A DNA stretch of 64,000 nucleotides, taken from assembly GCF_035685885.1 (NCBI RefSeq), contig NZ_DASRZX010000007.1, positions 2,085-66,084 of the forward strand, read 5' to 3'. A model generated the notes under the pieces. It was not told where the DNA came from. It searched no databases and was given only the letters and a program-made list of their open reading frames with translations. Positions 39,396 through 44,635 of this stretch are shown here, in pieces (within the stretch, counting starts at the first letter, position 1; every line of letters begins with the position of its first letter). A program made the translations under genes and the position numbers. The DNA comes from Dyella sp. (GTDB lineage: Bacteria > Pseudomonadota > Gammaproteobacteria > Xanthomonadales > Rhodanobacteraceae).

Positions 39396-39613
39396 GTCCC
39401 GCTCCGGGAGCACGCGCGTCGCTGCCGCAAAGCCGCTGAAACAACGGCGTTCTAACCCATCAACCCGCAAGATGCGCGCTCGTCCCAGCCTCTTTCCCGT
39501 ATGGGAACGGGCGCACGAAGGGTGCGTGCACTGCGACAAGCGTGCCGACGCCTTCCTATGGGATCATCGACCCCTCTTGAGAGGCATGGCGGCTGGCCTG
39601 GGCATGGACGTAG

Positions 39614-40234
39614 ATGGAACTGCTTGAACGACTGGTGACCCTGTTCGCCGAAAACGGCTACCTCGCGGTGTTCGTCGCGTTGTTGCTGTGTGGCGCCGGT
39701 GCACCGCTGCCCGAGGACATCACCCTGGTCGCCGGTGGCGTCATCACCGGCCTGGGCTACGGCAACGTGCACGTGATGTTCGGCGTGGGCATGGCGGGCG
39801 TGCTGGTCGGCGATGCGGGCATGTTCCTGCTCGGACACCACTACGGCGCGCGCATCCGCCAATGGCGCCTGGTGGCGCGCGTGCTCACGCCTGAGCGGTA
39901 CGCCAAGGTGCAGGAAAAATTCGAGCGCTATGGCAACCGCCTGATGTTCATCGCCCGCTTCCTGCCGGGCATGCGCACGGCAGTATTCATCACCGCCGGC
40001 TCCACCCACCGCGTGTCGTTCCTGCGCTTCTTCCTGCTCGATGGCAGCGCCGCGCTGATCAGCGTGCCGATCTGGGTCTATCTCGGTTACTTCGGCGCCA
40101 ACAACCATGAGTGGCTGGCCACCTGGATCCATCGCGGGCAGAACGGCGCGTGGCTGCTGGCCGGCGTTATCGTGGCCATCCTGCTGGCACTGTGGTGGCG
40201 CCACAAGCACAAGCGGCGCTGCCAGGAAAACTAG
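39614..40234 (+). CDS. DedA-family membrane protein
   Basis: PLPEDITL, GD..MFLLG, FIARFLPGMR. Confidence 0.9.
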   Translation: MELLERLVTLFAENGYLAVFVALLLCGAGAPLPEDITLVAGGVITGLGYGNVHVMFGVGMAGVLVGDAGMFLLGHHYGARIRQWRLVARVLTPERYAKVQEKFERYGNRLMFIARFLPGMRTAVFITAGSTHRVSFLRFFLLDGSAALISVPIWVYLGYFGANNHEWLATWIHRGQNGAWLLAGVIVAILLALWWRHKHKRRCQEN

Positions 40235-40269
40235 GCGTCCCTCCCCTTCCGGAACGGGACGCCCGTGCG

Positions 40270-42942
40270 TTACAGCCAGCGACCGTAGCGTCGGATGTAA
40301 AGCGTCTTCACGATCTGTGTCAGCACGGCATAGGTCAATACCGTCAGCGCCACCCAGCCGAAGTACACCGACGGCAACGTCACGAAGCCGAACTTCGAAC
40401 CAATGCTGGTGAACGGCAGCGCCAGGCCAATCAGGATGACGGCCGTGGTGAGCGCCAGCACCGGCGCCGCGGCAATGCTCTGCACGAACGGAATCTTGCG
40501 CGTACGGATCATGTGCACGATCAGCGTCTGCGTAAGCAGGCTCTCGATGAACCAGCCGGTCTGGAAGAAGGCCTGGTGTTCCGTCGAGTTCGCGCCGAAC
40601 ACGTGCCACAGCAGCCAATAGGTGGTGATGTCGAAGATCGAGCTGACAGGACCGATCCACACCATGAACCGGCCGATGTCGCTGGCGTCCCATTTGCGCG
40701 GCTTGCGCAGGTACTCCTCGTCCATGCGGTCGAACGGAATCGACAGCTGCGAGCCGTGGTAGAGCAGGTCCAGCACCAGCAACTGCAGCGGCAGCATCGG
40801 CAGGAACGGCAGGAACGCGCTTGCCACCAGCACCGAGAACATGTTGCCGAAGTTGGAACTGGCGGTCATCTTGATGTACTTGATGATGTTGCCGAAGGTC
40901 ACGCGACCCTCGATCACACCCTCTTCAAGCACCATCAGGTTTTTTTCCAGCAGGATGATGTCCGCCGACTCCTTGGCGATGTCGGTGGCCGTATCCACCG
41001 AGATGCCGACATCGGCCTCGCGCAGCGCCGGCGCGTCGTTGATGCCATCGCCAAGGAAGCCCACGGTATGGCCCTGGCGCTGCAGCGACTTCACCACGCG
41101 CGCCTTTTGCAGCGGCGACATCTTGGCGAACACCGTGGTGCGCTTGACCAGCTCATCCAGCTCCTCGTCCGACAGCGGCTCAATGTGCTTGCCCTGCGCG
41201 GAGTGCTCCACGTCCAGGCCCACTTCACGGCAGATCTTGCGCGTCACCGCCTCGTTGTCGCCGGTGATCACCTTCACTTCAACGCCGTGGTGGTGCAGCG
41301 CCGCGATGGCGGTAGCCGCACTATCCTTCGGCGGATCGAGGAACGCGAGGCAGCCGATGGCCGTGAGGTTGGCCTCATCGGCGACACCGTAGGCGCGCCC
41401 TTGGGGCGGCTGATGCTTGATGGCCACGACCAGCACGCGCAAGCCATCCTCGTTGAGGTGGCGCGTCATCGCCTTGATGCGGGCGCGCTGCTCGTCGTCC
41501 ATCGGCACGATCTCGTCGCCCGACTTGGCCTGGGAGCAGATGGAGAGCATTTCCTCCACTGCACCCTTGCACACCAGCAGTTCGTTGCCATTGTCGTTGG
41601 TGACCACCACCGACATGCGGCGGCGCTGGAAGTCGAACGGAATCTCGTCGACGATACGGAAATGCTGCGCCACCTCTTCCAGGTCGCGATGCTCCAGCAC
41701 TGCCTTGTCCATCAGGTTCTTCAAACCCGTCTGGAATCGGCTGTTGAGGTAACCGAATTCGAGCGCCTCGTCGGACTCGTTGCCGTGCAGGTCGAGGTGA
41801 CGCTCCAGCACGATCTTGTCCAGCGTCAGCGTGCCGGTCTTGTCCGTGCACAGCACGTCCATGGCGCCGAAGTTCTGGATCGCGTTGAGGCGCTTCACCA
41901 CCACCTTGCGCTTGGACATCGCGATGGCGCCCTTGCCCAGGTTCGCCGTCACGATCAGCGGCAGCATTTCAGGCGTCAGGCCCACCGCCACCGACAGCGC
42001 GAACAGGAACGCCTGCAGCCAGTCGTGCTTGTCGAGGCCGTTGATGATGAAAACGATCGGCACCATCACCGCCATGAAGCGGATAAGCAGCCAGCTCACG
42101 CTCTTCACACCGCGGTCGAAGCTCGTCTGCACGCGCTGGCCCACAACGGAACGCGCGAGCGAACCCAGGTACGTCCGCCCACCGGTGGCGACGATCACCG
42201 CAGTCGCGGTACCACTGACCACGTTGGTGCCCATGTAGCACACGGTCGCCAGATCCAGCGGGTTGTCACCGTTGCCCGACCCCTCCAGCTCGTCGCCCGT
42301 ATGGACGCGCGCTGGCGGCGCCTTTTCCACCGGCAGCGATTCGCCCGTGAGGATGGCCTGGCTGATGAACAGATCCTTCGCGGAAACCAGGCGCAGGTCC
42401 GCGGGTACCATGTCGCCCGCGGCGAGGTGCACGATATCGCCAGCCACCAGCTCGCCGACCGGCACTTCGATGCGCTCGCTGTGGCCATCGGAGGCGCGAC
42501 GCGTGACCGTGGCGGTGTTGCGCACCATGGCCTTGAGCTTTTCAGCGGCCTTGGACGAACGGTATTCCTGGGTAAAGCTCAGGAACACGCTGATGCACAC
42601 CATCACGCTGATGATGGTCGGCCCCGTAAGGTTGGTGCTATCGGTCGCCAGTTGGACGCCGGCGAGCACCAGCAACACCACGATGAACGGGTTCTTGAAG
42701 GCGTGAAGCAGCTGCTTCCACCACGCCGGCGGCCGCTCGTGCGATACCTCGTTGGCGCCATCGCGATCCAGGCGCTCGGCGATCTGGTCCGCGTTGAGAC
42801 CGGCGGCACTGGTATCCAGCGCTGCGTAGAGGGCCTCGTTAGGGCGAAAGGCTTCCTGTGCCACGGCCACGCGCACAGGCGCAGCTGCGGCGACCTTGCC
42901 GGCCGCCTTGCCGGTGACGGTCTGGGTGGAGTGCTTCAACAT
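40270..42942 (-). CDS. mgtA: P3B-type Mg2+-transporting ATPase
   Basis: TGES, VGLTPEMLP, DKTGT, GDGINDAPAL, KMTASSNFGN; M6 motif is atypical (see findings). Confidence 0.92.
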   Translation of the reverse strand: MLKHSTQTVTGKAAGKVAAAAPVRVAVAQEAFRPNEALYAALDTSAAGLNADQIAERLDRDGANEVSHERPPAWWKQLLHAFKNPFIVVLLVLAGVQLATDSTNLTGPTIISVMVCISVFLSFTQEYRSSKAAEKLKAMVRNTATVTRRASDGHSERIEVPVGELVAGDIVHLAAGDMVPADLRLVSAKDLFISQAILTGESLPVEKAPPARVHTGDELEGSGNGDNPLDLATVCYMGTNVVSGTATAVIVATGGRTYLGSLARSVVGQRVQTSFDRGVKSVSWLLIRFMAVMVPIVFIINGLDKHDWLQAFLFALSVAVGLTPEMLPLIVTANLGKGAIAMSKRKVVVKRLNAIQNFGAMDVLCTDKTGTLTLDKIVLERHLDLHGNESDEALEFGYLNSRFQTGLKNLMDKAVLEHRDLEEVAQHFRIVDEIPFDFQRRRMSVVVTNDNGNELLVCKGAVEEMLSICSQAKSGDEIVPMDDEQRARIKAMTRHLNEDGLRVLVVAIKHQPPQGRAYGVADEANLTAIGCLAFLDPPKDSAATAIAALHHHGVEVKVITGDNEAVTRKICREVGLDVEHSAQGKHIEPLSDEELDELVKRTTVFAKMSPLQKARVVKSLQRQGHTVGFLGDGINDAPALREADVGISVDTATDIAKESADIILLEKNLMVLEEGVIEGRVTFGNIIKYIKMTASSNFGNMFSVLVASAFLPFLPMLPLQLLVLDLLYHGSQLSIPFDRMDEEYLRKPRKWDASDIGRFMVWIGPVSSIFDITTYWLLWHVFGANSTEHQAFFQTGWFIESLLTQTLIVHMIRTRKIPFVQSIAAAPVLALTTAVILIGLALPFTSIGSKFGFVTLPSVYFGWVALTVLTYAVLTQIVKTLYIRRYGRWL

Positions 42943-43107
42943 GACTCGCTTCCGTGAAATCGGTGACATCTGGGCCGGACCAGCGAGCCGGGCGGGTATC
43001 CCGCGCGTGACGCTTAGACCTGCGCTACGGACTTCGTCGCAATCGACGCCACGGGACTGGCGGAGGCCAGCCCTTGCGGGGCAGCGCGGGGCGCGACAAA
43101 GCCTTCA

Positions 43108-43338
43108 TCAGTGACTGGATACCAGCTGCAGATGACGATGAGCTTGCGGAGCGGCATGTTCCTGCTTGCGCGCGAGCTGATGGCCACGCGTAGCGTCCGA
43201 AAGGCGGTGGGCTTCGGACGACTCAGACGGCTGCGCCTGCCCCAGCGGGGCCGGCACGGTGATCGTCCAGGAACGGGAATCCGAACGGCGGCCCAGACGG
43301 GCGACACGCAGACGGAAAAAATCGCGAAGGAGCTTCAT
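43108..43338 (-). CDS. Small ORF upstream of mgtA (76 aa), unknown function
   Basis: Strong RBS GAGGAGAAAGG before ATG; Arg-rich N-terminus; no family recognised. Confidence 0.45.
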   Translation of the reverse strand: MKLLRDFFRLRVARLGRRSDSRSWTITVPAPLGQAQPSESSEAHRLSDATRGHQLARKQEHAAPQAHRHLQLVSSH

Positions 43339-43395
43339 GGCCCTTTCTCCTCGTTAACGGCGCCGACGGCGCCGTCAGAGGTGGGCCGGTCTTCC

Positions 43396-43512
43396 CTAGT
43401 CCAGGAAAGCGCCAGCCGACCGCAGGCGGTCGCCGCAGCAGATCAGCTTGTTATGCAATGCCGGCACCCGATGCTCGCGGATGTCGACGTTGCGACTAGG
43501 GTAAACGTCCAT
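43396..43512 (-). other. Candidate 38-aa leader ORF in the mgtA 5' region
   Basis: MDVYPSRNVDIREHRVPALHNKLICCGDRLRSAGAFLD*, AAGG upstream; start and stop regions are complementary (8 bp). Confidence 0.4.
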
Positions 43513-43571
43513 ATGCCTTGGGTTGATAGGACAGAGGCCACTGAGGGCGAAACGCGCCCGGCGGCGCATAA

Positions 43572-43600
43572 ATTGTCTTGCTGCAGTGCGGGAGTGTCAA
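43572..43600 (-). promoter_or_regulatory. Near-consensus sigma70 promoter driving the mgtA leader
   Basis: TTGACA-N17-GACAAT on the minus strand. Confidence 0.7.
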
Positions 43601-43677
43601 CCCTATGGCATGGATTTGGGTGGCGAAAGTTGTTGCGTTCAGGGTCAGCACGAACATATCGCGCAGCAAGGTTGGCA

Positions 43678-43713
43678 CCTCACCCCGACCCTGTCTCCGA
43701 AGGCGAGAGGGAG
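43678..43713. repeat. Degenerate CCCTCACCCC..CCCTCTCC-type extragenic palindrome
   Basis: cctcaccccgaccctgtctccgaaggcgagagggag, directly after the cyoE stop. Confidence 0.45.
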
Positions 43714-43726
43714 AAAAGACCCCGGG

Positions 43727-44635
43727 TCACGCCGAACGCTCGATCACTACGCCCTGATGCTGCACCAGCGGCTCCATCACCCAATGGTCCACCAGCAGGA
43801 ACGCAAACAGCGCCATCAGGTACACAATGGAATAGTTGAACACCTTCATCGCGAAGAACTCATCCGGCGGATTCAGCAGGCGGATCGCGTAATACAGGAA
43901 GCCCAGGCCCAGCACCGCGGCACCACCGAGATAAACCATGCCGCTGTAACCCGTCAGCGCCGGCAACAACGTCACCAGTACCAGCAGGATCGTATAGAAG
44001 AGCACGTGCCAGCGCGTGAACACCACGCCGTGCGTCACCGGCAACATAGGCACCTGGGCGCGCGAATAGTCGTCGCGACGGAAGATGGCCAGCGCCCAGA
44101 AATGCGGTGGCGTCCACACGAAGATGATCAGGCACAGCTGCAGCGCGAACGGATGCAGCGATCCGGTGACTGACGTCCATCCCAGCACCGGCGGAATGGC
44201 GCCGGCCAGGCCACCGATCACGATGTTCTGCGGCGTGGCGCGCTTGAGGTAAGCGGTATAGATCACCGCATAGCCGATCAAACCGCCAAAGGTCAGCAAG
44301 GCGGTCAGCGGATTCACCAGCACGACAAGGACGACCATGGACAGCGCGCCGAGCGCCAGCGCAAACGTGAGCACCTGGACCGGCTTCAGGTGTCCCGTGG
44401 CAAGCGGACGATGCGCCGTGCGTGCCATCACCTTGTCGATGCGCTGGTCGATCAGGTGATTGAACGCAGCTGCTGAACCCGAGGCCATCCAGATGCCAAG
44501 CGTGCCAAACACCAGCGCGCGCCAAGGTGGAATGCCCGGCACCGCGAGAAACATACCGATGACGGCGCAGAACACCAGCAGCGCGACGACACGCGGCTTG
44601 GTCAGCTCCATGTATTCGTGGAAACGGCTCGTCAT
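43727..44635 (-). CDS. cyoE: Protohaem IX farnesyltransferase (haem O synthase)
   Basis: [41 protein letters not shown]. Confidence 0.95.

Follow-up and report, generated by a model that had tools for sequence, protein, structure and literature searches.

The mgtA gene in the window analysed here, a 64,000-nucleotide stretch of Dyella sp. DNA, is preceded by a leader that, judged by comparison with its relatives, is real, strongly conserved, specific to the family Rhodanobacteraceae and, it appears, not yet described: a cis-regulatory RNA that contains two uORFs. We consider it probable that this cis-acting leader RNA of ~620 nt is a translation-coupled switch with two alternative folds, which controls mgtA after transcription has started. 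Every feature of the leader lies on the minus strand, and positions are numbered as in the original prediction.

The gene that the leader serves had been named as mgtA, and this proved correct: its product, a P-type Mg2+ ATPase encoded at 40270..42942 (Pfam, NCBIfam; conserved start GGAAGCGAGUC-AUG, with the conserved ATG at 42942), scores 1286 bits against TIGR01524, for which the cut-off is 611. The transcript runs from a 5' hairpin through uORF1, a GC-rich hairpin designated T, the strong SD GAGGAGAAAGGG, uORF2 and a 165-nt spacer to mgtA, whose start lies ~400 nt beyond the uORF2 RBS. The M6 segment of MgtA (40753-40770) reads DLLYHG here and NLLYD in the solved E. coli MgtA (8uy7); NLLYD is found in about 53 of the 55 leader-linked MgtAs of the family, and DLLYHT solely in Rhodanobacter sp. 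ANJX3 (L187). A tie between the leader and an unusual MgtA ion site was rejected, since almost all leader-linked MgtAs carry the canonical NLLYD. A 413-codon minus-strand ORF (39452-40693) overlaps the 3' end of mgtA; it belongs to no Pfam or NCBIfam family, having only a sub-threshold DUF5955 match, and is probably not a gene as drawn, or else has its true start downstream.

Upstream of the leader, a ctaB-like UbiA gene ends at 43727. The near-consensus promoter that had been predicted, TTGACA-17-GACAAT (43572..43600; -35 at 43600-43595, 17 nt, -10 at 43577-43572), is present at those coordinates and is the only sigma-70-like match between 42800 and 43800 (mean of 0.2 in shuffled sequences). 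The pattern TTGAC(N)-17(18)-NANNNT, mostly with GACAAT, recurred in all 118 family loci, at a distance of 52-73 nt (mostly 55-61) from the uORF1 AUG. So constant a promoter (118 of 118 loci) suggests that control is exerted after initiation. The transcript would begin with a hairpin, GGGCG-cguuu-CGCCC (43545..43559), which is present in the MFE fold and has variants such as CGGCG/CGCCG in the genus alignment; family-wide it is 53-92% paired per column, on a poor alignment of the 5' end. About 20 nt upstream of the -35 element, the genus conserves the motif GCAACAACTTTCG (43622-43637), and several other genera carry AACTTTCG at the same place; these motifs may be a candidate binding site for a regulator. 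Further upstream, a REP-like repeat (43666-43717) separates the mgtA promoter from the end of the ctaB-like gene; in the genus it has several to seven matches per genome at 80-92% identity.

The helices, the reading frames and the association of the leader with its downstream genes are conserved within a defined taxonomic range. Over its full length, the leader can be aligned in all 24 genus genomes (80-91% identity), and the nearest relative, Dyella sp. AtDHG13, is 90% identical over 700 nt. In the 24 genus genomes, 70-97% of the positions in each 30-nt bin of 43530-43385 are invariant (mostly ≥90%), third codon positions included; the figure is 3-60% in the 5' coding region of mgtA and in those parts of the flanking leader that vary. 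The leader features are conserved beyond chance. The same region is recognizable at 73-93% identity across most genera of the family. With blastn, matches were found in 202 of 300 family genomes, and 28 of the 30 genera were matched at E ≤ 0.01, the weakest of these matches (E ~0.005) being possibly spurious.

An exact 26-base motif occurs in at least 119 loci; those with a genus name all belong to Dyella, Rhodanobacter, Luteibacter, Frateuria, Dokdonella or Pinirhizobacter. When the order was sampled evenly, the motif was present in 51 of 64 family genomes versus 0 of 336 genomes from 11 other families, and the reversed motif, used as a control, gave no matches. A covariance model built here found the element in 11 of 17 family genomes versus 0 of 133 others, with a single copy in this genome. 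Five family genomes were without the element: three had no mgtA, and two had mgtA behind a different upstream region. A covariance-model search of two genomes with mgtA (L243, G049; L244, G056) found no trace of the leader. The expectation that no known Mg sensor RNA would match held: searches of Rfam 15 with 42500-44200 and with 43300-43580 gave no matching family at E ≤ 10, with asX3 (E 1.8) and veev_FSE and ncS025 (E above 3) dismissed as noise. In the literature, we found no paper linking mgtA to these genera.

The first reading frame, uORF1 (MDVYPSR...AGAFLD), spans 38 codons from the ATG at 43512 to the TAG at 43398-43396 (43396..43512) and is absent from the gene calls of the window. 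It is 36-39 codons long in nearly all of ~140 loci. The distance from AUG to UAG is 108, 111, 114 or 117 nt in 116 of 119 distinct sequences, these length classes having been reached through at least five independent 3n indels; of the remaining three sequences, one is out of frame and two are degenerate. In the diverged copy L245, UGA replaces UAG at the same place. The AUG is invariant, with AGG 4-6 nt upstream in ≥90% of sequences; here the SD-like AAGG lies at 43519-43516. Within the initiation region (43507..43532), GUCC at 43532-43529 can pair with GGAC (AUG-GAC) at 43510-43507, as it does in the MFE fold. These bases are 78-95% paired per column, and they show no compensatory change because the 3' side is invariant. 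A longer, 57-codon ORF from the ATG at 43569 was rejected, not being conserved. The conservation of start, stop and frame through indels supports the view that uORF1 behaves as a translated frame, and the 38-codon ORF of the original prediction was borne out, down to its coordinates.

The peptide itself appears to be moulded by the RNA. Radical changes of residue in uORF1 go with the preservation of base pairs, and invariant loop nucleotides do not hold the encoded residue constant; from this we conclude that the uORF1 sequence would matter mainly as RNA. MgtL-type peptides are recognized by at least four D/E/P among the six residues after the Met (10.1101/2021.02.02.429294). The uORF1 peptide has two of six (DVYPSR), and its variants DDHPSR and DEHPSR have three of six; not being D/E/P-rich, it does not indicate an MgtL-type sensor based on ribosome destabilization, and it is unrelated to MgtL, as had been anticipated.

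We examined the pairing in two alignments, A1 with 50 and A2 with 107 sequences. In the MFE fold of 43566-43330 (z = -2.94), a long-range helix, P1, forms together with the anti-SD:SD pairing of uORF2 and closes a three-way junction. The 5' strand of P1, CCCUAGUC (43494..43501), is complementary to its 3' strand, GACUAGGG (43394..43401), which includes the uORF1 stop codon; both strands are paired in the MFE fold. The core CCUAG/CUAGG can pair in 105-107 of 107 sequences and is invariant. The only compensatory case for P1 is the diverged copy with CCCAG/CUGAGG, in which the cognate strands pair 1-3 kcal/mol better than the crossed ones. The predicted long-range pairing of CCCUAGUC with GACUAGGG thus stands as a complementary, conserved pairing present in the MFE fold; since both strands are invariant, it amounts to conserved complementarity and not to covariation, and the conservation of the strands could have another reason. 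In 10 of 50 sequences, a G-to-A change at the outer P1 position breaks P1 and keeps a competing hairpin (SH), a change that favours SH over P1.

Within the junction, the P2 stem-loop (43455..43493; GCAA/UUGC, GUCG/CGGC, CAUCCG/CGGGUG; loop CNNGCNU) has inner helices that are paired in all 107 sequences, with UG/CG/UA exchanges. The G, C and U positions of its loop are invariant, although the residue encoded there may be E, T, K, S, L or V. The P3h hairpin, CGACCG-ccug-CGGUCG (43417..43432), has a variable loop and compensatory changes, from GC to AU in seven sequences and from GC to CG in two. A long P3 helix (AGCUGA/UCGGCU etc.) suggested by the single-sequence MFE fold was set aside in favour of P3h, the short hairpin having the compensatory changes.

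At the stop codon, the RNAalifold consensus contains the hairpin SH (43384..43417; GGCUGG..CUUUCCU, a loop with UAG, AGGGAAG..CCGGCC). It has 12-15 bp that are 97-98% paired, and compensatory variants (CGCC/GGCG, UUGCC/GGCAA, UCCCC/GGGGA); its folding energy is -16 to -25 kcal/mol in 66 of the 68 distinct versions, and the uORF1 stop codon is always within or beside its loop. The local hairpin originally proposed, CUUUCCU-ggacu-AGGGAAG (43409-43391), is present and is the top of this larger hairpin (43417-43384). The two structures of the stop region are, as proposed, mutually exclusive, because P1 and SH both use 43396-43394. SH and the anti-SD of uORF2 are likewise exclusive, both using 43387-43384, and these shared bases make P1, SH and the anti-SD:SD helix a chain of exclusive choices. 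Covariation, suggested at the outset as a check, is present in the family alignments for P2, P3h, SH, T and anti-SD:SD (92-100% paired, with changes on both sides) and almost nil for P1.

The second reading frame, uORF2 (43108..43338; 76 codons, MKLLRDFFRLR...SWTITVPAPL..., ending UGA UGA), has its SD2 region, GAGGAGAAAGGGCC, at 43339..43352. Facing it is the anti-SD GGCCCACCUCU (43377..43387), whose GGCC also forms the 3' end of SH (four bases). The anti-SD:SD helix is capped by the T hairpin, ACGGCGCC-guc-GGCGCCGU (43357..43375). The latter is the downstream hairpin ACGGCGC/GCGCCGU of the original prediction (43375-43357); it does precede an RBS, but that RBS is uORF2's and not mgtA's. Since the downstream RBS belongs to uORF2 and is held closed by an anti-SD that covaries with it, what the switch would directly set is translation of uORF2 and not of mgtA. 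One T pair occurs as CG in 53, UA in 31 and AU in 12 sequences, and another as GC in 60, AU in 27 and GU in 15. The helix sequestering the SD is itself maintained by compensatory changes: GGCCC/GGGCC becomes GGCUC/GAGCC in 17 of 107 sequences, with none unpaired (CG 88, UA 17, UG 2 for that pair; CG 41, UA 9 in the 50-sequence alignment).

Equilibrium folding of 118 homologues gave a probability of ~0.2 that SD2 is unpaired, and placing a ribosome on the start or the stop of uORF1 in the model left SD2 still ~80% paired, because a pyrimidine stretch of the 5' UTR (CUGUCC) can take the place of the anti-SD. Simple thermodynamics thus fails to yield the opening of SD2 that we propose; on this model, the opening would have to be kinetic or need the 5' UTR engaged.

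The uORF2 frame changes as a coding sequence does: it varies at third codon positions, its indels come in threes, its basic N-terminus is conserved, and nearly all loci retain a TVP motif, mostly as TVPAP. Across the complete family loci that were read, it has 39-86 codons and is conserved only in the first ~40 residues. The peptide is hydrophilic and basic, without a membrane segment. It has no match in Pfam, NCBIfam or the protein atlas and is annotated solely as a hypothetical protein. The 3' end of the frame (…CAUCUGCAGCUGGUAUCCAGUCACUGAUGA, the tandem UGA UGA and a CUGG-uau-CCAG hairpin; 43104-43140) is nucleotide-invariant in the genus, and the middle of uORF2 is variable. Two other readings of this frame were set aside. 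The frames of uORF2 and mgtA match here, but their relation is 0, 1 or 2 elsewhere in the genus, which argues against in-frame read-through into mgtA. In addition, uORF2, which may resemble residues 1-20 of E. coli MgtA, is probably not a split-off N-terminus, as MgtA, with its 890 residues, is already complete against the TIGR01524 and PRK15122 profiles.

Between uORF2 and mgtA, the C-rich spacer (42943..43107, 165 nt) has hairpins at the genus level and is conserved within the genus, not beyond. Sequestration of the mgtA RBS is weak family-wide (0.37 versus 0.44 in shuffled sequences), the RBS being weakly more paired. In 36 of 36 loci, uORF2 and the spacer show an excess of C over G (C minus G of +5.9% versus -2.2% in the mgtA coding region). 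A terminator scan found no intrinsic terminator within the leader; the sole terminator-like site is that of the upstream gene (43736-43721). The T hairpin is followed by UAACGAGG and, without a U-tract, is not called as a terminator.

From these elements we infer the order of events, the Rho step, the ligand and the ON/OFF sign of the switch. Transcription would start from a strong, constitutive-looking promoter, and the first ~230 nt would act as a module with two folds. In the first fold, P1 would close the three-way junction enclosing uORF1, leaving the anti-SD GGCCCACCUC free to lock the uORF2 RBS. In the second, the strong SH would take the 3' strand of P1 together with the GGCC of the anti-SD, weakening the lock on uORF2. 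Ribosomes on uORF1 would have to open P1 at codons 4-7, an unstable P1 would likewise let SH form, and a ribosome at the UAG in the SH loop would cover SH and the start of the anti-SD; uORF1 translation would therefore decide the fold and, with it, the translation of uORF2. Ribosomes translating the C-rich uORF2 would most likely keep Rho from terminating transcription before mgtA. The most likely signal is the cytoplasmic status of Mg2+ or of divalent cations, and the leader could sense it by how stable the folded junction is, by how ribosomes behave on the uORFs, or by both.

The genes found behind the leader bear on this signal. In 37 of 40 sampled family loci, mgtA follows uORF2 at a distance of roughly 130-460 nt. 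In four genomes (L065, L073, L085, L245), a second copy of the leader precedes a CzcB-like adaptor and a CusA/CzcA-type RND pump, so that there are at least four CzcBA-linked copies; the adaptor is a CzcB-type lipoprotein RND adaptor, and the N-terminal third of the pump best matches CusA/CzcA (E 2.6e-80). The most diverged copy, L245:2497-2695 (G052:C26), has a uORF1 ending on UGA and a uORF2 without TVP. Occurring before both mgtA and CzcBA pumps, the module is a portable regulatory cassette for divalent-cation transporters. Sensing of Mg2+ is suggested by the identity of the downstream gene, a reading complicated by the copies before CzcBA-type pumps, as a leader before efflux pumps does not fit a plain Mg2+-starvation signal. 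A bolder version, which we regard as unlikely, would make the module a portable, self-contained sensor of divalent-cation or ribosome status that switches on both the Mg2+ importer and CzcBA-type exporters in response to one signal, with the uORF2 peptide (basic N-terminus, invariant TVP-x-P) acting as a nascent-chain arrest element. If true, this would be a leader of two stages, an RNA switch gating a sensor based on a peptide, an arrangement not described for any cation transporter.

The near-invariance of the nucleotides, third codon positions and the CNNGCNU loop bases included, would also be expected if the P1-P2-P3 junction were a riboswitch aptamer for Mg2+, another ion or a metabolite, which set the accessibility of SD2 and to which the uORF1 frame was secondary or incidental. 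The changes of the encoded residue at the loop (E, T, K, S, L, V), the replacement of VD by AG where GUCG becomes GCCG, a junction architecture like that of known Mg2+ sensors (PMC11552253) and the presence of the leader on unrelated cation transporters all agree with such an aptamer. Against an incidental frame stand its preservation in 116 of 119 sequences through 3n indels, the exchange of UAG for UGA in place, and the invariant AUG with AGG upstream; nor does the junction match an Rfam family. We therefore hold an aptamer with an incidental frame to be a credible though rather doubtful account. Ligand sensing as such is compatible with a translation-coupled switch, and the Salmonella mgtA leader is reported to do both.

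The hairpins could also serve only mRNA stability or translation efficiency, with no switch, if uORF2, and perhaps uORF1, simply encoded a small protein from the mgtA transcript, such as a partner or regulator of cation transporters. Enterobacteria have small proteins that act on MgtA, namely MgtS and MgtR, and uORF2 is conserved at the protein level (RR..W.ITVPAPL) and called as a hypothetical protein in many Dyella genomes. A hydrophilic, basic product without a membrane segment, conserved over only its first ~40 residues in a frame of 39-86 codons, speaks against this, as does its travelling with the RNA module to CzcBA operons; and the uORF2 SD lies in a covarying anti-SD helix, some of whose bases SH also uses, as one would design a start that is regulated. 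Altogether, an ordinary co-transcribed gene seems improbable to us. More improbable still, to the point that we give it hardly any weight, is a transcription attenuator in which translation of uORF1 would determine whether the GC-rich T (43375-43357) forms as an intrinsic terminator. T does covary best of all the helices, lies just after uORF1 and is followed by UUAUUUC in Luteibacter. In most genera, however, the stem has no more than one or two U behind it, and the terminator scan passes T over; T also lies within the anti-SD:SD helix, and we found no conserved partner that could act as an anti-terminator. The RNAalifold pairing GGCG.CCG (GGCG/CGCC) with the 5' arm of T was tried as an anti-terminator and rejected, being broken in several lineages.

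RNA- and peptide-based control in leaders of Mg2+ transporters is understood almost only from Salmonella and E. coli. The element described here, which we favour as a translation-coupled switch, is a candidate new Rfam RNA family and offers a tractable experimental system in culturable soil bacteria (Dyella, Rhodanobacter, Luteibacter). As the module is also found on CzcBA-type pumps, it would link Mg2+ uptake and metal efflux under one signal, and such a linkage lets one ask what these leaders sense, the free ion or the performance of the ribosome. It also corrects the annotation, in which uORF2 is now a "hypothetical protein" and uORF1 is uncalled.

Among known systems, the M-box (ykoK, RF00380) is, like this element, a structured leader of Mg2+ transporter genes; unlike it, the M-box is without a uORF and ends in an intrinsic terminator, and the element has no RF00380 match at E ≤ 10. 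In translational attenuators of the ermC type, a ribosome translating the leader ORF remodels the hairpins in which the next ORF's SD is hidden, as proposed here. Those attenuators answer drug-stalled ribosomes and are without a three-way junction, whereas here the next ORF is itself a leader ORF.

The Salmonella mgtCBR leader contains two uORFs, mgtM and mgtP. Translation of the mgtQ uORF before mgtB remodels stem-loops, and its Asp2 matters (PMC8092293). As in these systems, two short ORFs, or a uORF that remodels helices, would govern an Mg2+ transporter here, and Asp2 of uORF1 is invariant. The sequences, lengths and helices differ; moreover, mgtQ acts directly on the mgtB RBS, whereas the regulated RBS here would be that of uORF2, ~400 nt before mgtA.

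The closest parallel is with the enterobacterial mgtA and corA leaders, in which a three-way junction encloses a uORF and two exclusive folds are coupled to Rho, the reported output of the Salmonella mgtA leader being Rho-dependent termination (PMC11552253). Like mgtL/mgtA (RF01056, Mg_sensor) and corA/corL, the Dyella element is a long leader before an Mg2+ transporter, with a uORF in a three-way junction, a uORF start that adjoins the closing helix, and two exclusive folds. A junction enclosing a uORF and an alternative fold, as in RF01056, are both found here, in the MFE fold and in conserved pairing, and the resemblance is one of design only: the RF01056 covariance model gave no match at E ≤ 10, and there is no match in sequence or structure. 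uORF1 has 38 codons versus 17 and is not Pro- or acid-rich, and the element is found in Rhodanobacteraceae only, also before CzcBA-type pumps. Unlike mgtL/mgtA, it places a second conserved uORF, with an anti-SD lock of its own, between the switch and mgtA. By this analogy, we read the leader as a translation-coupled, cation-responsive element that is analogous to mgtL/mgtA and would have reached the same design without detectable homology, adding to it a second, locked uORF.
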